64,000 bases of DNA, taken from IMG/VR virus record IMGVR_UViG_3300026549_000067, positions 17,514 through 81,513 of that record; one strand, written 5' to 3'. Under the pieces are notes generated by a model, which saw nothing but the letters and a program-made list of their open reading frames with translations, did not search any database and was not told where the DNA came from. Both the position numbers and the translations under genes were made by a program. This DNA is from a virus (Duplodnaviria > Caudoviricetes). Every line of letters begins with the position of its first letter. Position 1 is the first letter of the stretch. Below are positions 6,305-48,144 of the stretch, in pieces.

Positions 6305-6766
6305 TCAGCGAGTAATAGCCAGATCTGGTCGCGTGATGATGATATTCGCATTCTGTACCAGAATTGGTTGGTCACTGGTATTTGTAATTGAGAGAGTTTC
6401 GCAACATCCGCGCCATACATCTGCGTTGATTGCTCTGGACACATTGAAATACTCATCAACTGCGGCAGGAGTCACAATCATTGTACTAGACGGAAGAACA
6501 CTTCCATCCAGTGAGATTGCAAGGCTAATTGCACCAACTGTACCTGTTGTCGGGATTGCAATGTTTGCTCCGAAGTCAACAAGGTAATTTGCGCTGTTGT
6601 TTCTGCATCCGCATGAATTGTACGGAACCCAACCACTCAGAAGAAAGTTTCCACTACCATCACGATGTCTTACGAATCCCCTGTTGCAAGGAACTGCAAC
6701 ATCCGTAAATACAACTGTCTGTCCAACATCGACAAGCTGAGAGTCATTAGCGAAGTATTCAGCCAT
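6305..6766 (-). CDS. beta-rich Cys-containing protein, possibly BclA-CTD/C1q-like
   Basis: Alternating beta-strand pattern (VDFGANIAIP, ISLAISLDG, NANIIITR) with PCNRG and GCCE motifs. Confidence 0.6.
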   Translation of the reverse strand: MAEYFANDSQLVDVGQTVVFTDVAVPCNRGFVRHRDGSGNFLLSGWVPYNSCGCRNNSANYLVDFGANIAIPTTGTVGAISLAISLDGSVLPSSTMIVTPAAVDEYFNVSRAINADVWRGCCETLSITNTSDQPILVQNANIIITRPDLAITR

Positions 6767-6781
6767 AATTGACCCCCTTCC

Positions 6782-7708
6782 TTACGCTACGCCGCATCCG
6801 CATCCACAACCACCGTTGTTACAAGTGAAGATCGGTGTACGTCCATATACTGGAGTAGTCGGAACTGGGCAAGTGTTCAGACGATTGTACAGAGCATCAA
6901 CCTCGTTGTTGAGTCCCTGTTGGAAGAGTGCTGTCTGGGCATTGTTGTTTGCCAGAATCTGTGCTGTCTGCTCAACCTGAGATGCCTGACCGCGAGAGTA
7001 CATAAGTTCCTGACGGAGATTTGCAATTGTTTCATTCTTCTGGTCATCGCGATACTCGCAAAGCTGATCCTTAATGGATTGAATGCCAGAATTGAATGCT
7101 GTCAGAAGTGCCTGAGTGTTCTGGGTATCAGTTGTTCTTGTTGCGCACGCTTCGGTTGCAAGTGCAAATTTAGCATCAGCGATACCAGATGCAATGCCAT
7201 TAAATCCTTGCATGTTAGCTGTCTGTTCTGCGAAGGAACGATTCAGATTTGCAATCTCGTTGCTATTAAGCTGTTGAGAAATTGCGTTCTGCGCTCCTGT
7301 TACTGCGGCAGTTGTTCCTGCAAAACCATTGCACAGGGATTGCTGAATACCTGCTGTGCTGTTTGCGAGTGCCATCTGCATATCGCCACAGCATCCACAA
7401 AGCTGAGTTGCAAGACCACTCACGCCATCTCTGACAGAAGTAACGCTGTCATGAAGCTGTGCATCACGGAATCCATCGTTGACATTGTTATTGATACCGT
7501 TCTGACCATTCAGAAGCCACGGAAAATCAATTCCAAGTCCACCTGCGAAACCGCCGCCGAAGCCGCCCATTCCCCAACCGTTGCCGCCGATCAGCAGAAG
7601 CAGAAGAATCCATGCCCAATCTGCACCGAATCCCATGCCACCACCATATCCACCGCCATACATCGGAGAGACCGGCATTACAAAATTTTCCTGATTAGAA
7701 GAAAGCAT
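6782..7708 (-). CDS. Gly-rich membrane-anchored coiled-coil Cys-rich protein
   Basis: GGGYGGG...WAWILLLLLIGG N-terminus, CGCC, long heptads, C-terminal GCGCGCG. Confidence 0.75.
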   Translation of the reverse strand: MLSSNQENFVMPVSPMYGGGYGGGMGFGADWAWILLLLLIGGNGWGMGGFGGGFAGGLGIDFPWLLNGQNGINNNVNDGFRDAQLHDSVTSVRDGVSGLATQLCGCCGDMQMALANSTAGIQQSLCNGFAGTTAAVTGAQNAISQQLNSNEIANLNRSFAEQTANMQGFNGIASGIADAKFALATEACATRTTDTQNTQALLTAFNSGIQSIKDQLCEYRDDQKNETIANLRQELMYSRGQASQVEQTAQILANNNAQTALFQQGLNNEVDALYNRLNTCPVPTTPVYGRTPIFTCNNGGCGCGCGVA

Positions 7709-17310: not shown

Positions 17311-17670
17311 TTATGAGTCTCCTGCTGTTGTAAATGTTATAGAAGCGCAAAGCTGTTTGTTGCTGGTTTCGTATGCCCATACAGTTAGTGTACCATTAAC
17401 ATTCAATCGAAATGGAATAAGTGCCTTCGATTGATCGTTGGTATTGTTATCGTACCCAACAAAATCGACTCGTTTCCATGGACGAAATCCATCTGGCAAA
17501 GTACAAATCGTTGTCCACAACCTATTGTTGATTGTTGTGGACAGACCTGTTATTGTTATTGTAACAGAATACAAACTTTTCGTTGCAAATATAACACCGT
17601 ATTCATTAGATAGATCAATTGTTTGTGGTGGTTGGATTATTTTTAATAGTGTTTTCTTTAAACTAAGCAT
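17311..17670 (-). CDS. small beta-rich tail-associated protein
   Basis: ICTLPDGFRP...LNVNGTL, typical of phage fibre C-terminal domains. Confidence 0.6.
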   Translation of the reverse strand: MLSLKKTLLKIIQPPQTIDLSNEYGVIFATKSLYSVTITITGLSTTINNRLWTTICTLPDGFRPWKRVDFVGYDNNTNDQSKALIPFRLNVNGTLTVWAYETSNKQLCASITFTTAGDS

Positions 17671-20791: not shown

Positions 20792-23344
20792 TTACCTCTT
20801 AGAAATAACTATGTTTTTGCTCCTGTCTTCTTTAACGGAATAGTCCGTAAAGAAAAACGATTGCGTAACCTCACCGTTGATAAAATAGAACTTATCCTCT
20901 GCTATATATGCAGTTCGTACAGTTCCTTCGTAAAACTCAATAACTGAATTGCTAATTTCCTGTCGTGAACCGCTATTTGGATTTCCGATAACAGCTTTTT
21001 CACCATAAGATGCAATTTGATTCCCTTCGTAATAAACTTTAAAACCATCTTTTGTAGTGCTTGTTCCAAGGTTTCCATCTGAATCATATACATCGACAGA
21101 TTGGTTGTTAATGTTTATGCGACTTAAACTTCCTTCTTTCGCCCTGATATCAAGTCCAGATTCCTCTGACCATTGAATCATGTTGTAGAGGTTGTCAGAT
21201 GATATAAACTTGTATGTACTGCCATCGTATGTAAATGATGCTGTTGTTCCGCTTGGGAATGTGAGTTTATTATTTATGTCATCGCTCCCATTTATAGTAA
21301 CAAGTTTTGCACCAGTTCCATTTACATCCATCATCATTCTGTTTGATATGTTTCCGTTGATAAATGTCACGGCAAACTCCGTGCCCTCATACAATACGAA
21401 GTTTTGGAGAGATACTATCTTTTCTTGCGCATCGGATGATGTTTCACAAATTCCATATCTCGATTCTCTGCGCAATCGCTCCATTTCCTCTGTCAAATCT
21501 TCTGGAGATGGTGAATAATATGTATTTATGCTACCTTCTTCTAACTCTACTCCTGCGATTGATAAAGAGGAAAGTCCTGCGACTCTAAATAATACCCATT
21601 TCGGAATATTAATATCCCCTTGGTCTGATATAGTCCACTTAACCCAATATCTTTGCCAATCGTTTGTAAGTGTAAATGGAATAAGACCATCTGTGTTTGT
21701 GTTTGTTGTTCCTTGAGAATTAACACCTTGCGCAACGGTTGGATAACCAGATTCTCCGTAGAAGTAAACATACAATGTCGGATCTTGAATAGCATCTGCT
21801 CTTGCCCAAAACGACAATGTGTATGTCTTGCCCAACTCAACAAAAATGTTGTGCCATGCCAATATATCATAAAGCTGAGATGACTCAGTATTATCAAATG
21901 ATGCAACGGCACATTCTTTGTATAATCCTGCAAGTGTGCAATTCTGAGTATATAAACATCCGTTTGCGCTTCGATCCTGAGAAACAAAAAAATCTTGCGT
22001 GCCACGCAACAGGTTTGTCCCACCAACCTCAAGGTTGTCTACCTGTTCTTGTAGTTCCGCGATTAATTGCTCTGCCTGATCTGCATTCTCTGCAATCATT
22101 CTGCGCAGTTCTACATAACTTTTTGTTCTCTCGCTGAATCTTTCTGCGCTGTTTCTCGCAGGTGTTTCGGCATCGCATGACGTATTTTGAGGTTCTCCGA
22201 CAGTGAAACTTGTTCGCGTAATTAGCATTCTGTATTGATTGCCTGTTGGATCAAAATAATATGCAACATCGCCTGCTTCTATTGTCGGATCACTTGGATG
22301 TGATAATTCTACAATTCTGAATCTCAGACCAACCAATTTGCTTGCAAGATAATTAGCGACATACTGAATGTTGTCCGTGGTTATAAATTCATTATTTTCA
22401 AGCCTTACCGCATACCCTTCGGAACCAACAGTCCGCTCAATTATTGATTCACTCCCTGATGAATCTGTTGTTTTGGCTGACACAGTTACGCACGTAATAA
22501 CTACATCGTCAGTTGATACTTCTCCAGAATATCGTTGCGTGATGTAGTGAACGTTATTCCCTTGCGTGAACAATCCACCATCATATTCATCTCCGACATT
22601 CCACGGATTAAACGTCCCACCATCAGCGACATCTCCAGTTGCATACGGTGTTGCACTGTCAAAAATTCCACCGTCCAGTTCATCAACACTTTCAAACGCG
22701 TCTGTGTTAAACCATTTAAGTTCAAGTTCTCCATCTGTGTTGCATCTTGCATAACACCCAGCAATACCTGCTATCCACGAAACTATTTCTCTGTGTGTTG
22801 CATTTGTTGGTCTTGTTGCCACAGGAAGTGTACTGTTTGGAAACGTTGTAGTGGCAAGTGTTACTCCACATTCAGTGCAAGAGTCCGCGAGAATATCGGA
22901 CAATCTCATTGGATAAGACAGACTCGTTGTGTATTCCTTATCGAACTTCGACATATAATCGTGCATCTCAATAGTAATTAAACTGCCGTTGTACTTTGTG
23001 GATTGCTCGATATATGTACCTTTTTTGAACAAAAGCGTTTCAGATAATTCCATTCCAACGCTAAGTTCTATTGTTGCACCTGTAAAATCGTATTGAGAAT
23101 AATCTCCGTATATATTATTAATGACAAGCGTTGCTTTGTTGATTATTGCGCTACCAACAGTAAAAACTGTATCACCAGATACTGCATCTTCAATTGAAAA
23201 ACCGCCACTCCAAACATTCGCTTCTGTAAGATTCAAAACAGTATTGTTTTTTAGCGTGATTGTAGCGCGTTCAATATAATTTCTTCTATCTTCGTACAAC
23301 GCTTGCCTGTATTCTTGTTTTAATTCGGTTGATACATCAATCAT
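20792..23344 (-). CDS. baseplate hub/tail-associated protein with CBM-like insert
   Basis: Follows the distal tail gene; GGTNLL...YTLSFWA...WQRY carbohydrate-binding-like domain. Confidence 0.75.
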   Translation of the reverse strand: MIDVSTELKQEYRQALYEDRRNYIERATITLKNNTVLNLTEANVWSGGFSIEDAVSGDTVFTVGSAIINKATLVINNIYGDYSQYDFTGATIELSVGMELSETLLFKKGTYIEQSTKYNGSLITIEMHDYMSKFDKEYTTSLSYPMRLSDILADSCTECGVTLATTTFPNSTLPVATRPTNATHREIVSWIAGIAGCYARCNTDGELELKWFNTDAFESVDELDGGIFDSATPYATGDVADGGTFNPWNVGDEYDGGLFTQGNNVHYITQRYSGEVSTDDVVITCVTVSAKTTDSSGSESIIERTVGSEGYAVRLENNEFITTDNIQYVANYLASKLVGLRFRIVELSHPSDPTIEAGDVAYYFDPTGNQYRMLITRTSFTVGEPQNTSCDAETPARNSAERFSERTKSYVELRRMIAENADQAEQLIAELQEQVDNLEVGGTNLLRGTQDFFVSQDRSANGCLYTQNCTLAGLYKECAVASFDNTESSQLYDILAWHNIFVELGKTYTLSFWARADAIQDPTLYVYFYGESGYPTVAQGVNSQGTTNTNTDGLIPFTLTNDWQRYWVKWTISDQGDINIPKWVLFRVAGLSSLSIAGVELEEGSINTYYSPSPEDLTEEMERLRRESRYGICETSSDAQEKIVSLQNFVLYEGTEFAVTFINGNISNRMMMDVNGTGAKLVTINGSDDINNKLTFPSGTTASFTYDGSTYKFISSDNLYNMIQWSEESGLDIRAKEGSLSRININNQSVDVYDSDGNLGTSTTKDGFKVYYEGNQIASYGEKAVIGNPNSGSRQEISNSVIEFYEGTVRTAYIAEDKFYFINGEVTQSFFFTDYSVKEDRSKNIVISKR

Positions 23345-23353
23345 CTTGACGGT

Positions 23354-24007
23354 TTACCTTTCGATGAAGTCAAAACTGATTTTTTCTATCAGTTTTCTAT
23401 TCGTGAACCAAAATTTAACAGGCACACTTCGATCCCCTATGTAAAATGTTCGGGTTTCATATGTTCCAGACATCATATCTGGATATTTGACACTCATATA
23501 TTCGTTGTTTACTGCTCTTATGATAGTTGCCGTTTCTTCCCAATTCTTACCAACCCATTCAACTTTAAGTTTTCGCTTCTGGGCAACTCTGTTTTTGTGC
23601 ATCAGGGCATCGTCTGTTCTCAATATGTTATCGCACGGCTTTTTGTCCATGCATCAATACCATTGCAGTATTGTTCGGCGTACCTGTTCATCCATTCCTA
23701 TCGGATGGCGCGGACTCTTGGAAGTGTTATATCTTTTCAACTTCTACGCTCTGCCCCTGACCATGCTTTGCATAGTCTTCGGTTCGGATTGTGGTTGCAA
23801 ACCATTTCTCCGCTTAATTCCGCGCTGATAATTCGTAGCCTACTTGATAGGTTCGCTACGAACGGCAGTATCAGCAACTTCGCATTGAATACGTTACTGA
23901 CGTTGTTTACCTGATTCCCCCGCACTAACATCCTGCAAGCTCCATTCATAAGCTGATGGGCATGGCAATTTCGTACCATTCACGGTAATCATTATTTCTC
24001 TTGCCAT
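23354..24007 (-). CDS. distal-tail-like protein, two exons (23909-24007 + 23354-23620), 121 aa spliced
   Basis: Spliced product MAREIMITVNGTKLPCPSAYEWSLQDVSAGESG|RTDDALMHKNRVAQKRKL restores a continuous SG-RT-D-MH motif. Confidence 0.88.
23621..23908 (-). ncRNA. group I intron (288 nt, no homing endonuclease)
   Basis: 5' exon ends in U and the intron ends in G. P3 GCGCGG/CCGCGC; P7 GAGCGUA/UACGCC; P4-like AAUUAAGCGG...AAUCCG; P8 CAUCC/GGAUG; P7.1 GAAGU/ACUUC. Confidence 0.9.
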
Positions 24008-24062
24008 GTATTTACCTCAATTAAAGAAGGACACCCCACATTGAGATGCCCTTCCTTCTATA

Positions 24063-27000
24063 TTAATATTGCGCAACAGGATTGTATCTACTATCCAATT
24101 TTTGCTTGCCACGTTCAACGTGACGAGCCAACACTTCATCGTTCTCCATTTTGAGAACTGCGTTGACAATAATTTCCTGACTCTGCGGATTCATTGCCAT
24201 AGCCATTACAACTGCATCTGTAATGTCATCCTTAGATATTCCGAAGTTATCTCCAGATGCTCTTGCTATTGCATTTCCGATTGTTGCCATTGCTCTGCTG
24301 TCTTCCAATGGGAGAACCGCTTCGTCTCGACCTGCTTCTGCGACACCAATCACTTGACCAGAACCGCCTTTGAACAATCCACCTTTCTTCCACCAACCAG
24401 CAAATCTATACGTAGGTATACTTGGTGGATCAAGGCTAAAGCTACCAGATTTTTCAAAGTGCGGAACAGGTATGTGCGGCTTAGTGTTGGAAATATCCAA
24501 AGACCACTTTGTTCCGAACGTACTTTTCAGACTTCCGAACGCTTTATCAACCGAATCTTTTATACTTCCGAACTTCTTTTCTACTTTTTCACTAATGCTT
24601 TCAAGAGTCGATTTGAAACGTTCTGCCGCACTGCTGAAGCTACTACTCATCTTCTGTGAAATATTTGTAATTGCAGAATCGACAGTTGTTTTTACATCGC
24701 CCCATACTCTTGCTGTTTTTGTACTGATTGCATCAAATGCTGTCGATGTGACAGTTTTGATGTTGTTCCAGTTTGTGCTTACCTTTTTGTACGCTTCAGA
24801 CACAACCGTTGCAGTTTTTGTAGATACCGCTTGCCAAGCTGTCTTTACATCTGACTCAACGCCACTAAATGCTTCAGATGTTTTTGTTTTTATACTGTTC
24901 CATGCACTTGCTACTTTTGTTTGTGCATTTGTTGTAACCGTTGTGATCTTGTTTTCGATGTTGCCCCACACGGTTGACGCTTTGGACTCAACTGTACCAA
25001 GCACAGATGATGTTGTGGTGGAAACAGTGTCCCATGCTGATTTGACTCCACCTTTAATATCATCCCACGTCTCTTTGGTCTTTGTCTTGATAGAGTCCCA
25101 CGCAGATTTTATTCCGTTCCACAACTTTCCTGCGGCTTCTTTTATTTCTCCCCAATGTTTTACAATTGCAACAGTTACTGCAACAGCACCTGCAATTGCC
25201 GCTATAATAATCCAACCTGTCGGTCCGATTGCCGCCAACGCTCCACCGATTGCTGTTACTGCACTTCCAATTCCAGAAACAATTGAACTTAATCCACCCG
25301 ACACAGCACTTAGTATTGTCGGGAATCCTGCCGTGACTTGTCCTGCAAACGATGACATCAGATTCGAAACACCGCCTGCAAGTAATGTTCCGACAGATTT
25401 TCCTGTAAATGCTTTAACAATGTTGTTTGCAAAAGGAAGAAGTGCTGACCCGATCTTAAAAGCAATGAGTGCTTTAATGAGTCCTGATGCAAGAGATCCA
25501 GCTGGCGTAGATGACAATCCAGAAAGAATGCCGCCGAGTCCTGTCATGATTGCTTCGCCAACAACCTTGAGGATCTTGCTCCAAGGAATCTGTTGAAGCA
25601 TTTCTGCAAGACCTTTTCCAAAGTCTTCCCAGTTTGTTTCTTCTATAATAGATATAAGCGTATCGCAAAGGTTTCCAATGAAGTCACCAAGTGCTTCACC
25701 GTTTTCTTTCCACTTAAAGTTTTTGATAAAAGTATTTATACCGTCAGTGATGTTTTTCGCTATATCATCCCAATGCACTGTTTTTGAGAAGTTACTTAGC
25801 GTTGTAAACAAACCGTTCAACGAAGTTGTCATTGCCTTGGCAACGGTTGTCCAACTGATAGCACCATTCAAACCGTTGATACCTGCCCCAAGCTTCTTGC
25901 CAAATTCATCCCACTTGAAATCCTTGGCAAACCCATATAACGTGTTCCAGAGGATCATAAATTTGTTTCCAAATAATTTTCCGATCTCTCCGAAATTGAC
26001 CTTGTTGACAAGTCCGTTTGCGAATTCTGCAAATGCGCTACCAATCTCTTCCCACTTTATATCTTTGAGAAGCCTGTTGACCGCATATACAATATCGTTT
26101 ATCCCTTCGCCTACAGTTTTTCCAAGCAGTTCCCAGTTAACGTTTTTGACAAGACTATTAAACGTACTTGTGAATCCAGTTATAAACGGATCAACTTTTT
26201 CTTTAAATTTATTGAAATCTAAGATTTTGTATAGTTTTTTTAAACCATCATTGATTCCGCTTGCGATTTCTGCTCCAAGTAAGTCCCAATCACCCTTCTC
26301 AAATGCCGCTTTACACCGCTCTGCCCAATCACTTATAGCATCAGGAAGTTTACCTGCTTCGCTATTATTCATCAGGTCGCTCCAATCAAGGAGATCTTTT
26401 CCGAGATCGCCAAGCGCACCTGCTCCACCGCCACTACCAGAGCCTTTACTTGATGATGTGGATTCTCTGTCTTTGTTAAGTTGATTCAGTTCATCAAACG
26501 GAAGAACCGACAAATCTTTTTTCAGCTTTTTGGCCGCTTCGTCAGCATCCTCAAGACCGCTTGCTGTTCCGTTTGCCGCATCTTCAAGTTCGGAAGTATC
26601 ATCTGTCATAGATGACGCATCAAAAGCCATGCCAGATGCACCGCCCTTATACTTCCCGAAGATGGTTTGCATAAATGTCGCAAATGCCGTTGCTCCCTTA
26701 ACGAGATATTTCATCATCGTATTAAGCCACACAACAACATGTCTGATTGCTGAAGCAAGTCCAACACCAATCTGTGTGCCAACTTCTGACAAGTATGCTT
26801 TTAATGTTCTAAGGCTGTTGGCTAAACTCTTATTCGTGCGCTCGAAGTCTCCCGATTGCAATTCCGTAGCGTGCATCAGGTAGTTGTATCTCAACATTAC
26901 CTTTTCCGCTTGCGTCATTGCATTGTACTTCGTGGTAATACCTTGTGCTTGTGCGTACTCTTGCAGTGTTGCCGCAGTAAGGTCAATACCTAAATCACGC

Positions 27001-37744: not shown

Positions 37745-38173
37745 TCAATCTTTAAGATATTTTTCTTCGAATTCCTGTAATGCTTCACCGTGAAGATGGC
37801 AAGTGTGATAATATGTATATCCCATTGCAACAGAAATATTCTCAAACCTACGTTCTTCCCTGTCCGGATTGATATATCTTCTGGTAAGGATCTCTATATA
37901 TTCAGCCTTACTGAGTCCGCTTATTTTATTTACGCAATCATTGAAAATGAAATTGTATTCTTTAAGAGATTGTAATACTTCGTTTTCTGCATCGACCAAT
38001 TCCGATACCGTTTCCGATAACGCATCGTGCGGAGATGTCTGCACTCTGTCCTTGTCATATCGCAAACCCTCAAGATAAGTTATGGATTCCCTGATGCGCT
38101 CATACTGTTTCTGCTTGTTTTCTGCGTTTAACTGGCTTTTCCGAAGTCTTTGTAAATATTCTTTCGCTGTCAT
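37745..38173 (-). CDS. ArpU/RinA-like late transcription activator
   Basis: MTAKEYLQ...EILTRRY...FENISVAMGYTY......HGEALQEF. Confidence 0.8.
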   Translation of the reverse strand: MTAKEYLQRLRKSQLNAENKQKQYERIRESITYLEGLRYDKDRVQTSPHDALSETVSELVDAENEVLQSLKEYNFIFNDCVNKISGLSKAEYIEILTRRYINPDREERRFENISVAMGYTYYHTCHLHGEALQEFEEKYLKD

Positions 38174-38790
38174 GATGCACCTGCCGTTGATGGTTCTTTA
38201 TAAGTTTCCTGATTTGATCCGAGTCCTTTTGATGGTGTATTTAAAGCATCATCCAAACTCCACCCAAGTTTTCCAATCCTGTCATAAACAACTTGTGGTT
38301 TCAAGCCGTTTTTTCTACATTTATTGGCAATCGAATCTTTTGCGTGTTTTACTGGGTTTTCCAATGCTTCTGTTGGATTCATGCCTTTTTTGATTCTCTT
38401 CTGGATTGTGTAATACGGTAAATTAAGTTCCTCACACCAATCTATCAGAGCTTTCGTTTCACCCCGATACTCAACCATTACGCAGGTACGCTTGTTCCTG
38501 TTTTGAGCCTTGACCGTTGCCCATCGACAGTTCTCCGGTGTGTAATCGCCATCATTGTCTATTCTGTCTATCGTAAGGGAAGAGTTGTAACCGTTCGCTT
38601 TTGCCCATTCAACAAAATTATCAAAGTTCTCCCATTCTTTGCAGATTTCGATTCCTCTACCACCATAATCCTTATACCTTGCACACTTTGGATTAAGACA
38701 CCTCTTTCTCATTCCGTTCCAAATATCGTATAAACGTCTGTTTTCTGCGCTATCGTGCGGAGAATATTTATAAAGTCTATTGAAATGCAT
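38170..38790 (-). CDS. free-standing HNH homing endonuclease
   Basis: LYDIWNGMRKRC.NP...YGGRGI...LTIDRIDNDGDYTPENCRWAT plus C-terminal HTH repeats. Confidence 0.9.
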   Translation of the reverse strand: MHFNRLYKYSPHDSAENRRLYDIWNGMRKRCLNPKCARYKDYGGRGIEICKEWENFDNFVEWAKANGYNSSLTIDRIDNDGDYTPENCRWATVKAQNRNKRTCVMVEYRGETKALIDWCEELNLPYYTIQKRIKKGMNPTEALENPVKHAKDSIANKCRKNGLKPQVVYDRIGKLGWSLDDALNTPSKGLGSNQETYKEPSTAGAS

Positions 38791-41460: not shown

Positions 41461-41533
41461 CAGGGGCAGAGCGATTTGAACGCTCGTTGTTGGTGTCAAA
41501 GACCAATGTTTTAACCGATTAAACTATACCCCG
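41461..41533 (-). tRNA. tRNA-Gln(TTG)
   Basis: Cloverleaf; anticodon arm ttggt-ctTTGac-accaa; TTCAAAT T-loop. Confidence 0.88.
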
Positions 41534-41538
41534 ATATT

Positions 41539-41664
41539 TGGATATGACAGGATTCGAACCTGCATGTGATGATTGATCGGATCATCCTGAGTAGTGCGCG
41601 CCCAGTGCATTACCACGGCAGTTATGTTGCACGCTAATTGCAACCGCCTTTATGCTACACATCC
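41539..41664 (-). ncRNA. tRNA-like RNA (126 nt) with ~50-nt insertion before an Ile(GAT)-like anticodon hairpin
   Basis: Acceptor GGATGTG/CATATCC-A; T-arm GCAGG-TTCGAAT-CCTGT; gatgat-ccGATca-atcatc. Confidence 0.6.
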
Positions 41665-41668
41665 ATAA

Positions 41669-41758
41669 TGGATACGGTGGGATTCGAACCCACATTACAA
41701 GTAGGTGGCGAACCCCTTGTTCTTTACCGCCAAAACTCTACCATTGAGTTACGTATCC
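41669..41758 (-). ncRNA. tRNA-like RNA (90 nt) lacking a canonical anticodon loop
   Basis: Acceptor GGATACG/CGTATCC-A; D-arm ACTC-AATGGTA-GAGT; T-arm GTGGG-TTCGAAT-CCCAC; anticodon domain irregular (GG-TTCG-CC). Confidence 0.6.
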
Positions 41759-42684: not shown

Positions 42685-44181
42685 TCACAAATAGACAAGC
42701 CCTGTGTTTTGTGATGTGATTCGACAGTCTCGTCTCGGGTAGTTTGTCTTCTTGTCCCCCACAACACGTAAGTACAGTCCGCCAGAAATCTGCCCACTCA
42801 TCACGTGCCGTTCACCGTTATGAACAAACACAGTTCCGGGCATTAATCTCTTATCGCTATTGTAGTATCGCGTGCTTTTCTTCACGCTTACACGACTCAA
42901 CATATGCATAGCTCTTTGCTCACCATACAATTCAACCTGTTTGTCAAACCAGTCAGATAAGGCATCTCCCTTTTGTTCGAATCGTGGTTTTCTATTCTTT
43001 GCGATCATTTTTCCGTCGTAAAAATATGTACGTTCTCTTTGCGATTTAACGATTGCTCTGTTATGCCTTCTGAACTGCATGATATGGTACATCTCTCCAA
43101 TCGCATCAGGTTCCGGCAGCTCTTTAAAGAAGGAAAGCGCAATACAGTAAGCATCCATGAAATGCCTCTTGGGAAGCTGCAGTTTCTCCCGAATGCTTTT
43201 GGTCTCGTATCCGGTTGTTACATATGTCGGCAGTATTTCAGAAAGCTCCTTAAGAAGCATTTCCATGATCTGGTTGATTAGACTCAGCGCATGATACTTC
43301 TTTAAAATGCCTTCCTTCTTTTCTTTCAGCTTGCCTGCTGCCCGGTCGTTTTTGTGGACCTGCTCATGACAGGATGTACACAATCCGGCGATGTTGTCGA
43401 TACTTTCGCTTCCACCTCTGCTCTTCGGAACGATGTGATGAAACTGCTCGATGTCTGCTTCGCCACAAAGCAGACACTTATGTTTTTGCTGCTCTGCGAC
43501 AGCTTCGTCCCTGCTGTCATATCCAAACAGCCGGCCTTTTTGGTACTCCCAGTTCCTGATGTTCGGATTTTGCATTCTTGCGAAATCAAAAACATTGATT
43601 TCAACAACAACGCAGGTAACCGGAAGAATCTTCTGAATGAGCTTAATACAGTTAATATGCGTCTCCTTTAGCTGTCTTGCTGACGGTGTCAGCCATTCTG
43701 CTGCTCTGGTTCTGTTGTTGAATCTGGCTTCCGTGTTTCTGATATGCTTACAGCAGATCGGCTCCTTACAGCCCGGAAGCATACGCCAGAACTCGGTATG
43801 TTTTGCCATGCCGGTTTTGTCAGATGCTATAGCCCTTCTCTGGCGCTTTTTGCGTTCGCCTCTTCTGGAGGATTGCCGCATCTGCTTTCTATGAAGCATA
43901 AGTTTTGCAATTTCCTTGTTCCTTGTAACTGCTTCCGCGGCATAAAGAACATTGCCTCTTGAATCCACTGCTGTAAGCCCGATATTCGTTCTTCCCGGAT
44001 CGACGCCAAGAATTACATCATCCGTAAACGGATTCTCGATATCGTATGTGAGCTGAATGGTGAAAGGCTTATAGCATGCAATATGGGCCTTTCCCGACTT
44101 TAACAAGCGCCTTGCGCGCCCGTATTTGTGGATTGGCATCAGCGGCTTGCCACTTTTTGCCAGTACGTAGATATTTGGCAT
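42685..44181 (-). CDS. iscB: RNA-guided endonuclease IscB
   Basis: PLMP N-terminus, RuvC-I GVDPG, Arg-rich bridge helix, RuvC-II VVE, HNH HHIVPKSRGG..NIAGLC..CH, RuvC-III HFMDA. Confidence 0.95.
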   Translation of the reverse strand: MPNIYVLAKSGKPLMPIHKYGRARRLLKSGKAHIACYKPFTIQLTYDIENPFTDDVILGVDPGRTNIGLTAVDSRGNVLYAAEAVTRNKEIAKLMLHRKQMRQSSRRGERKKRQRRAIASDKTGMAKHTEFWRMLPGCKEPICCKHIRNTEARFNNRTRAAEWLTPSARQLKETHINCIKLIQKILPVTCVVVEINVFDFARMQNPNIRNWEYQKGRLFGYDSRDEAVAEQQKHKCLLCGEADIEQFHHIVPKSRGGSESIDNIAGLCTSCHEQVHKNDRAAGKLKEKKEGILKKYHALSLINQIMEMLLKELSEILPTYVTTGYETKSIREKLQLPKRHFMDAYCIALSFFKELPEPDAIGEMYHIMQFRRHNRAIVKSQRERTYFYDGKMIAKNRKPRFEQKGDALSDWFDKQVELYGEQRAMHMLSRVSVKKSTRYYNSDKRLMPGTVFVHNGERHVMSGQISGGLYLRVVGDKKTNYPRRDCRITSQNTGLVYL

Positions 44182-44492: not shown

Positions 44493-44565
44493 CGGAAACG
44501 GTAGGACTTGAACCTACGACCCCCTGATTAACAGTCAGATGCTCTACCGACTAAGCTACGCTTCC
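44493..44565 (-). tRNA. tRNA-Asn(GTT)
   Basis: Cloverleaf; ctga-ctGTTaa-tcag anticodon arm; GTTCAAGTC T-loop. Confidence 0.92.
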
Positions 44566-44801: not shown

Positions 44802-45421
44802 CCCATGAACACAATCATAATCATAAATGGATCTTCACCCTACACAACAACATCGTCACAATATTCAGCCACCGTTCCGACAAGTCTGAGCCATAAGGAG
44901 CGACCCTATAACTTCTTGCCAGTTCCCATAAGGGACAGTAACGAGTCCGAGTGGTCACGGAACAAATTTCACGCAGGTCATTCAGATTTTCTTGACCTAA
45001 TAACGGTACATGGATTTCAAGTCCATTCCGTTCTCTTCCATTTCAGAAGTCAATGCCAATTTGCGCTACTCTTTCACCGAACAGGTCTTATTGTCGGATT
45101 TCTCCGACTCAATGGCACAAGCTGTTTATGGACATTTCCGAGCGTTTCCGTATGTTGTCCAGACATACAGGCGTATCGGATTAAGCGATGCAGTGCATCT
45201 CTCTATTGCACAGCCGACCTGACAGCAACCTTTTGCGGCAACATTATTATGCGCATACGCTTGTCGTTGACGGTTTCCGTCTTCCAGAGAAACATCACTG
45301 CACCTCTGAAGCATACATACGGAAGTATCCCACCGCATATATACTTGACATACGCGCATCCCAAGCACGCTGACTAAGCGATCTTCACTTGGGTATTTAT
45401 GACCATGATTGTGTTCATGGG
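44802..45421. repeat. 27-bp inverted repeat enclosing the large RNA (44802-44828 / 45395-45421); third arm copy 44468-44492
   Basis: cccatgaacacaatcat(aa/gg)tcataaat; the third copy is 24/25 identical to the first arm. Confidence 0.9.
44829..45393 (-). ncRNA. ROOL-like (ROOL/GOLLD class) giant ornate RNA, ~565 nt
   Basis: No convincing sense ORF; next to tRNAs. Motifs recognised from memory: GUGAAGAUC at both ends, CUGUGCAAUAGAGAGAUGCAC, AAUAAGACC..GGUGAAAG, AAUCUGAAUG, GGUGGCUGAAUA..GUAGGGUGAAG. Confidence 0.75.
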
Positions 45422-47487: not shown

Positions 47488-48144
47488 TTAAATTGCGACT
47501 TTTTCGGAAGTTCCGTCTCGCCATATAAATGCATAACGTCTTCCGTCTTCATAGTCTAGGAATCCCACCTGCTTTCCGTTTCTTACGCCACCGTTACAGT
47601 TTGCATTCAACAGGTCAATGTTGTTTCGGTATCGCTTAATACCGTGTTCTTTCTTGAATTCATCAAACCATACTGTCTCTGCGAAGTTTCCGCGAACACC
47701 AAGTTTGTCTTTGCATTCCGATTTTGATATCTTGCAGTTGAAGAAGTCAAACAACAACTCTTTGTAATTCTCTGAGTGAACTCTTTTTCGACCGCTGACT
47801 ATCTTTAGCTTTTCGCTTCGTTTTGCTTTCGCAAAATTCGACATGTGTATTTTCATGTGACACGTTAGACAAACCGGAGCGATGTTCGTGAACCTGTTTG
47901 TTCCACCGACCTCAAGCGGCACAATGTGGTGATATTCGATTTCCTTGTCATCTCCGCAGTTTACGCACTCTGTCCCACATTTCTCTGGTAACTGCTTATG
48001 AAACTTGGCTGACGAAAACTCTTTGCGCAATCTTTCGTATTCTGTCATAGATGCACCCTCACTTTCTGTGTGTGATTCGGTGTATGCATCTTTCAGAATG
48101 ACTTCTGATGCGCTCCTGCCGATATTCCGTTTTGGTCTTAACAT
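47488..48144 (-). CDS. HNH endonuclease
   Basis: CVNCG....EYHHIVPLEVGGTNRFTNIAPVCLTCH. Confidence 0.88.
   Translation of the reverse strand: MLRPKRNIGRSASEVILKDAYTESHTESEGASMTEYERLRKEFSSAKFHKQLPEKCGTECVNCGDDKEIEYHHIVPLEVGGTNRFTNIAPVCLTCHMKIHMSNFAKAKRSEKLKIVSGRKRVHSENYKELLFDFFNCKISKSECKDKLGVRGNFAETVWFDEFKKEHGIKRYRNNIDLLNANCNGGVRNGKQVGFLDYEDGRRYAFIWRDGTSEKVAI

Follow-up and report, generated by a model that had tools for sequence, protein, structure and literature searches.

A probable ORF-less group I intron splits a DUF6711 tail gene in a virus of the Caudoviricetes

Introduction

The group I introns in the td, nrdB and nrdD genes of phage T4, which we take to be classical members of subgroup IA2, presumably share the helix order described below for the present locus, carry a P7.1 hairpin between P7 and P3', and follow the rule that a U precedes the intron and a G ends it (U^...G^, the caret marking a splice junction). 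A P7.1 hairpin in this position is a trait of subgroup IA, as seen in the structure of the td intron. Three small group I introns with IA-type peripheral helices interrupt orf142, a tail gene of Staphylococcus phage Twort, and a ribozyme structure has been solved for this system. Later work identified the orf142 product as the tail tube protein (PMC11878797). Mycobacteriophages BAKA and Optimus carry an ORF-less 265-bp intron in a minor tail protein gene, which was found by way of an intronless relative and confirmed to splice by RT-PCR, with an exon ending in U and an intron ending in G (PMC3706429). Phage Tuc2009 has a spliced intron in a capsid gene (PMC3706429). Tail genes are documented hosts of phage introns (PMC11878797, PMC3706429).

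Here we analyse an interrupted tail gene in the window, a 64,000-nt stretch of DNA (positions 17,514 to 81,513 of IMG/VR record IMGVR_UViG_3300026549_000067) from a virus of the Caudoviricetes; all positions below are those of the window unless another sequence is named. A preliminary description of this locus had treated tail genes as unusual hosts for introns, a premise that is overstated given Twort orf142 (PMC11878797), BAKA (PMC3706429) and relatives of the present RNA in capsid genes. The evidence presented here makes it very probable that the 288-nt insert is an ORF-less IA-type group I intron, located between codons 33 and 34 of a single 121-aa DUF6711 gene and splicing by the chemistry we infer for it.

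Results

The interrupted gene and its boundaries

Exon 1 lies on the minus strand (24007..23909), encodes 33 aa and ends in the codons GAA TCA GGT (protein ...GESG). Read without splicing, this frame (24007..23894, minus strand) ends ...GESGKQRQ at a stop that is the fifth codon past GGT (23911..23909); as translation of the unspliced RNA would end four codons into the intron, the full protein would be made from spliced mRNA only. A second minus-strand ORF (23650..23354) starts within the insert and from 23620 on reads RTDDALMHKNR..., corresponding to exon 2 (23354..23620, minus strand), which begins AGA ACA GAC and comprises 88 codons plus the stop. The insert between the exons (23908..23621, minus strand) is 288 nt long, is preceded by U and has G as its last base, and its excision joins 33 and 88 codons into a 121-aa protein. 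This protein matches PF20458 (DUF6711, E = 9e-9) in its second part and phrog_1194 (E = 3e-26), exon 2 giving matches to both. Exon 1 aligns to positions 4-35 of phrog_1194 and the second ORF to positions 35-125, so that one family profile spans the break.

Searching proteins with exon 2 gave 168 relatives, the best of which, P0001 (121 aa), consists of exon 1 and exon 2 with nothing between them: its residues 1-33 are identical to exon 1, and its residues 34-121 are 98% identical to exon 2. Its DNA, the metagenomic allele L001, is 97% identical to the window, encodes GESG^RTDD and lacks exactly the 288 nt. The two sequences align at 95-97% identity on both sides and break exactly at GGT^AGAACA, with an ambiguity of a single base, an A that can be placed on either side. 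A second pair of alleles with and without the insert, L006 and L155, have exons that are 93% identical. The reading frames, the stop codon and the 288-nt excision restoring 121 residues thus stand as first described, and the coordinates 23621-23908 proved right to the base, the ambiguous A aside; alignment of intronless homologues over the junction, the lack of which the preliminary description had named as a refutation, was found for L001 on both sides.

The 121-aa gene comes directly after a 1756-aa tape-measure-like ORF and before a gene for an 850-aa tail protein (phrog_6616, E = 9e-104). An AlphaFold (AF2) model of its product, built from 50 homologues, has a mean pLDDT of 86. Foldseek gave weak matches only (best E = 1.5e-3), all of them to tail, neck or baseplate ring proteins, with none in the PDB at E<=0.001, and the fold assignment therefore rests on VIA-align, in which baseplate hub and Dit chains, a 109-residue lambda tail tip chain and the Dit proteins of SPP1, T5, p2 and TP901-1 scored Z 7-9. 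These comparisons of a predicted model indicate that the DUF6711 protein has a tail-tube/Dit-like fold, and we read it as a putative minimal distal-tail ring protein with a role like that of Dit. Gene and intron each occur once in the 81.5-kb record, rated 100% complete by CheckV, and no intact copy is present; since this single copy is split, the full-length protein requires splicing. The earlier claim that tail assembly depends on splicing is upheld to the extent that the only copy of a tail gene is interrupted.

Alleles sharing the insertion site

Among the best 120 protein clusters from the exon 2 search, 11 are truncated gene calls of 98 or 89 aa, and in their contigs a homologous insert occupies the same codon boundary. 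Comparison covered nine distinct full-length inserts (284-299 nt), that of the window and those of eight further alleles, two of which came from IMG/VR. The exon-2 proteins of these nine alleles range down to 53% identity with that of the window. The insertion point falls in the most conserved motif of the protein, ESG^RTDDALMHKNR, and the junction is GGT^AGA in 9/9. Four intronless alleles have GGT, GGC, GGC and GGA before the junction and AGA, AGA, CGT and CGT after it. In this small sample of related sequences, the constancy of GGT^AGA is consistent with a 5' splice site that requires U, or with co-conversion as the element spread. At the other end, the last base of the insert (23621, the putative omega-G at the 3' splice site, with the junction fixed by L001) is G in 9/9 alleles, while the four bases before it vary.

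The in-frame stop after exon 1, and the fact that gene callers report only ORFs of 37 and 98 aa, could also be explained by an inert insertion, that is, a decayed mobile element that broke the gene and left the phage either defective or using the two fragments separately. We consider this very improbable, since nine distinct alleles carry the insert at the same base with both exons open, in frame and conserved, since compensatory changes maintain pairing within the insert (see below), and since the AUG of the spurious 98-aa ORF sits inside the stem of P9.1.

Structure of the intron RNA

The insert has a minimum-free-energy fold of -82.6 kcal/mol (z = -3.79 against shuffles), which none of 200 shuffles reached. 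RNAalifold, applied to seven of the sequences, returned hairpins in which 36 of 69 pairs were compensated. We set out a full group I structure and counted its pairs on the nine sequences, with pairing partners slid by 1-3 columns as a control. All nine inserts have the helix order P1-P2-P3-P4-P5-P6-P7-P7.1-P3'-P8-P7'-P9-P9.1, with 97.8% of cells paired compared to at most 46% when slid, and 41 of 77 pairs are compensatory. P3 and P7 cross, forming the group I pseudoknot. The extra helices between P7 and P3' amount to a single hairpin, P7.1, with no P7.2, and it is this placement of P7.1 that we mean by IA-type.

For the core, we also drew on the wider RNA family. Exact copies of the strand AUCCGAACCGAAG...UCAGGGGCA were present in at least 110 IMG/VR contigs, and 70 distinct cores were aligned (alignment A2) and their pairing tested. 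Conserved single-stranded and P4/P6 motifs served to pick these cores, which makes the invariance of those motifs a consequence of the selection; the helices that covary played no part in it. Across the 70 cores, 95.4% of cells are paired compared to at most 41% when slid, and 26 of 37 pairs changed on both sides.

The 5' strand of P1 (23908..23911, minus strand, as are all elements of the intron) consists of exon GGU and the first intron base, A, with the 5' splice site after U 23909. It can pair with the internal guide sequence UGCC (23864..23867) in 9/9 alleles, which would place a U·G wobble at the splice site. The guide is invariant in alignment A4, and TGCC precedes P2/P3 in many members of the wider family as well. 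P1 has only 4 pairs in the window allele and 6-7 in alleles with an AGU or AGC serine codon; it lacks covariation because the helix is invariant. An alternative P1 formed from exon AUCAG and intron CUGAU was rejected, as relatives alter CUGAU to match an internal GUCAG rather than the exon. By eye, P10 would comprise at most 1-2 pairs (A-U, G-C), with no conservation.

Between the two strands of P1 lies an extension hairpin, GUCAGUAAC...GUUGCUGAU (23870..23901), in which 6 of 9 pairs are compensatory, for example AUAAGCAAU/GUUGCUUAU in L009. Because GUCAGUAAC pairs perfectly with GUUGCUGAU in the window allele, this hairpin could also be read as a P1-like helix containing a U·G pair, which would move the 5' splice site to after GUCAGU at 23896, shift the 3' site and yield a protein with an 8-residue insertion. 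Such displaced sites are extremely improbable: the junction is set at GGT^AGA by the intronless allele, no insertion is seen here in homologues, and in L009, L011, L014 and L022 both hairpin strands have changed irrespective of the exon, which places the hairpin inside the intron. With the boundaries of the group I intron kept at GGT^AGA, the next element is the P2 hairpin (23831..23863), with compensatory changes in 7 of 9 pairs.

The 5' strand of P3, GCGCGGA (23819..23825), pairs with UCCGCGC (23708..23714), the strand that completes the pseudoknot with P7, and 7/7 pairs change on both sides among the 70 relatives. P4-P5 (23785..23812) includes an A-rich J4/5 (GAAA) and J5/4 (CAA); P4 is 100% paired and almost invariant, and P5 covaries. 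The P6/P6a hairpin (23754..23782) lies within the invariant signature AUCCGAACCGAAG...UCAGGGGCA and has 4 compensatory pairs. P7 is formed by GAGCGUA (23745..23751), with A 23750 bulged, and a partner at 23677-23682, and 3 of 6 pairs are compensatory. It is 100% paired in the 70 sequences, 70/70 of which retain a G-C pair (including G 23749 here) with an unpaired A or C immediately 5' of it. By analogy with studied group I introns, this invariant pair is a candidate guanosine-binding site. The family contains four complementary versions of P7, GCGUA/UACGC, GCAUA/UAUGC, GAGUA/UACUC and the canonical GACUA/UAGUC; GAGCGUA/UACGCC, noted initially as a compensatory variant, represents one of them. 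P6, P7.1 and P8 likewise covary among the cores, and the four helices P3, P7, P7.1 and P8 that had been recognised from the window alone all pair and all covary in relatives.

P7.1 (23721..23744) has a stem in which 5/5 pairs covary and a nearly invariant 14-nt loop, UGAAAAGAUAUAAC. The family form of this loop, UGAAAAGAUAUAAY, resembles J8/7. The P8 hairpin (23689..23707) has 4/4 counted pairs compensatory, and is followed by J8/7 (AACAGG) and the 3' strand of P7, UACGCC (together 23677..23688; family consensus AAAAGAUAUGC(C/U)). We take this J8/7 to be close to the classical AAGAUA motif. P9 and P9.1 (23633..23673) have 6 of 7 and 4 of 6 compensatory pairs, respectively.

Together, these elements suggest how the intron would be removed. 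The transcript would fold into the P3-P9 and P4-P6 core, and exon GGU with intron A would pair with the UGCC guide to form P1, which would put the U·G wobble where cleavage takes place. Bound at the invariant P7 G-C pair, a free guanosine would attack after U 23909, the terminal G 23621 would then take the same site, and ligation of the exons would give ...GGU^AGA.... We infer by analogy this chemistry, the part played by the P7 pair and an ability to self-splice unaided by protein.

Detection by covariance models and sequence searches

At gathering thresholds, Rfam found no intron family in the whole window. With the cutoff relaxed to E<=10, Rfam, with the group I model RF00028 included, gave no intron family in 23300-24100, and RF00028 had no match in the whole 81.5-kb record; at E<=1 it found nothing on 17 family loci or on the loci of phages phiR1-37, BpSp and LIS04 described below. 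As positive controls, RF00028 recovered the introns of T4, Twort and SPO1, and it matched 19 places in phage AR9. The Infernal group I check suggested in the preliminary description was therefore negative. A match to RF00028 is a detection aid and not a defining property of group I introns, and the Rfam group I model is reported to be incomplete and may miss phage variants (PMC11878797). The proposal of an ORF-less group I intron is upheld in its architecture, its U^...G^ boundaries and the absence of an ORF, though not in an RF00028 match, so that membership in group I rests on architecture and genetics.

A model built from the 70 cores, R1, scores the intron at 148.8 bits. Neither the window nor the record as a whole holds another copy of the family. 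R1 has no match to the T4 and Twort introns, so that no sequence-level link to an experimentally studied ribozyme emerged. The exact family signature is absent from T4, Twort and SPO1. One R1 match in SPO1 (E = 0.03), at the start of gene 31, was taken as noise because the annotated intron and endonuclease lie elsewhere. With the 801-nt region as query, blastn found nothing at E 1e-5 among 50,697 phage records; a more typical family member matched 12 records at E<=1.

These results bear on whether the insert, as a real intervening RNA of a conserved family, might not be an autonomous group I ribozyme at all, depending instead on a protein of the phage or host or on other chemistry, with a convergent or strongly derived fold. 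RF00028 is blank on every family member we tested, R1 finds neither the T4 nor the Twort intron, P1 is short, P10 is weak, and the conserved 14-nt P7.1 loop lacks an explanation, all of which would agree with such an RNA. However, the helix order, the P3/P7 pseudoknot, the bulged P7 with its invariant G-C pair, the A-rich J4/5, a J8/7 near AAGAUA and the boundary U and G fit group I, and the Rfam group I model is published as incomplete for phage introns (PMC11878797). We therefore regard a non-autonomous RNA as unlikely and retain the group I reading.

The wider RNA family

Genes downstream of the family cores encode gyrA, DNA polymerase III alpha, RNR, an SNF2 helicase, a ClpB-like ATPase and two capsid protein families. 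Some members contain ORFs, either in the P8 loop with promoter-like sequences or before the guide sequence, and these may be homing endonuclease genes. R1 matches at E about 1e-22 also fall in unannotated gaps of three cultured phages. In Yersinia phage phiR1-37 (AJ972879, about 244.66-244.82 kb; L144 2472-2637) the gap separates a 71-aa gyrase fragment from the gyrase A CDS; in Bacillus phage BpSp (L145 2472-2676) the match precedes the gyrase A CDS; and in Listeria phage LIS04 (L146 2473-2621) it follows a CDS annotated as "endonuclease", upstream of the terminase gene. These matches probably mark introns of the family that escaped annotation.

In P5, many members of the family contain CCUAAG...UAUGG, which we take to be the 11-nt receptor motif, and their P9 carries a GAAA loop. 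The sub-lineage of the window has L5 UUUGCAA and L9 UG(C/U)AAU instead, and mutual pairing of the two loops is conceivable. An intron of the same sub-lineage, with these P5 and P9 loops and the canonical GACUA/UAGUC P7, occurs in L104 (about 6760-7060, plus strand) within a small ORF beginning MAAAGEW; its presence in a different gene suggests movement between genes. Two contigs, L033 (2370-2623, minus strand) and L053 (1327-1580, plus strand), have a canonical RF00028 intron (98.5 bits) some 100 nt downstream of a core of the family type, so introns of two lineages can occur close together.

Mobility and neighbouring elements

The preliminary description had also proposed that the intron, which encodes no endonuclease, relies on free-standing HNH genes for mobility. 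Both genes are real, the ORFs 38170..38790 and 47488..48144 being HNH-type endonucleases that lie 14 to 24 kb from the intron; reliance on them is pure conjecture, and nothing found here links them, or a third gene with an HNH domain at 42685-44181, to the intron site. The ORF at 38170-38790 directly adjoins the gene for the terminase large subunit; this is a common location, often linked to packaging.

Several other elements of the window were recorded. A 498-aa ORF (42685-44181, minus strand) has Pfam RRXRR (E = 7e-48) and HNH domains in an IscB-like architecture, and sits between the tRNA cluster and a full-length ROOL RNA (44810-45416, minus strand; RF03087, 340.7 bits, E = 7e-78) that itself adjoins tRNA genes. 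Ordinary tRNAs occur at 41461-41533 and 44493-44565. Two tRNA-like genes (41539-41664 and 41669-41758, minus strand) score above the Rfam tRNA threshold (33 and 49 bits) and have long insertions in the D/anticodon region, of 35+23 nt and 30 nt, respectively.

Discussion

In conclusion, the intron of the DUF6711 gene is real and was missed by standard RNA annotation, yet it is an ordinary kind of element for phages. Its host gene family had no previously noted intron, and its RNA lineage is missed by the standard model; knowledge of group I introns in general is unchanged. The practical consequence is for annotation. Gene callers split an essential-looking tail gene into 37-aa and 98-aa ORFs, and truncated calls of this kind make up about one in ten of the closest DUF6711 protein clusters in public data. 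In the gyrA and terminase regions of cultured phages, members of this RNA family show up as gaps in the annotation. Scanning with a model specific to the family, as R1 is, would put these annotations right. With this work, a distal-tail/baseplate ring gene also joins the late structural genes that need splicing to be expressed, and the two closely related intron-plus/intron-minus pairs provide material for studying gain and loss of an intron without an endonuclease.

A more far-reaching reading, which we put forward tentatively, is that the window intron represents a large lineage of group I-type phage introns that has never been modelled or described; we found no paper describing this RNA family by sequence. 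The lineage's own traits would be a fixed GGU^A target read by the UGCC guide and the nearly invariant 14-nt P7.1 loop. For the sub-lineage of the window, a possible further trait is an L5-L9 loop-loop contact replacing the GAAA tetraloop/11-nt receptor of other members. Were this reading true, annotations of many split phage genes would be wrong, and a new branch would have to be added to the subgroup scheme.

Compared with described introns, those of T4 differ from the window intron in that they carry or carried homing endonuclease ORFs and reside in genes of nucleotide metabolism; they are detected by RF00028 and not by R1, the reverse of what is seen here. The Twort introns score 64-101 bits with RF00028, to which the window intron gives no match, and are missed by R1, so the relation to Twort is one of shared class and not of close family. 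The BAKA and Optimus intron is, like that of the window, ORF-less, located in a tail gene and bounded by U^...G, while its hosts differ, being high-GC actinobacteriophages. The closest comparison is with the gyrA gene (g044) of Bacillus phage AR9 (KU878088), which has two introns of the same RNA family (R1 82 and 78 bits). Like the window intron, these begin after GGT, have TGCC upstream of P2, end in G and are missed by RF00028; unlike it, they interrupt DNA gyrase rather than a tail gene and differ in the details of P5, P7.1 and P9. The AR9 gyrA CDS was deposited as a join of 3 pieces, that is, as spliced by annotation, and members of the RNA family found in the DUF6711 gene have thus already been treated as introns in a cultured phage.
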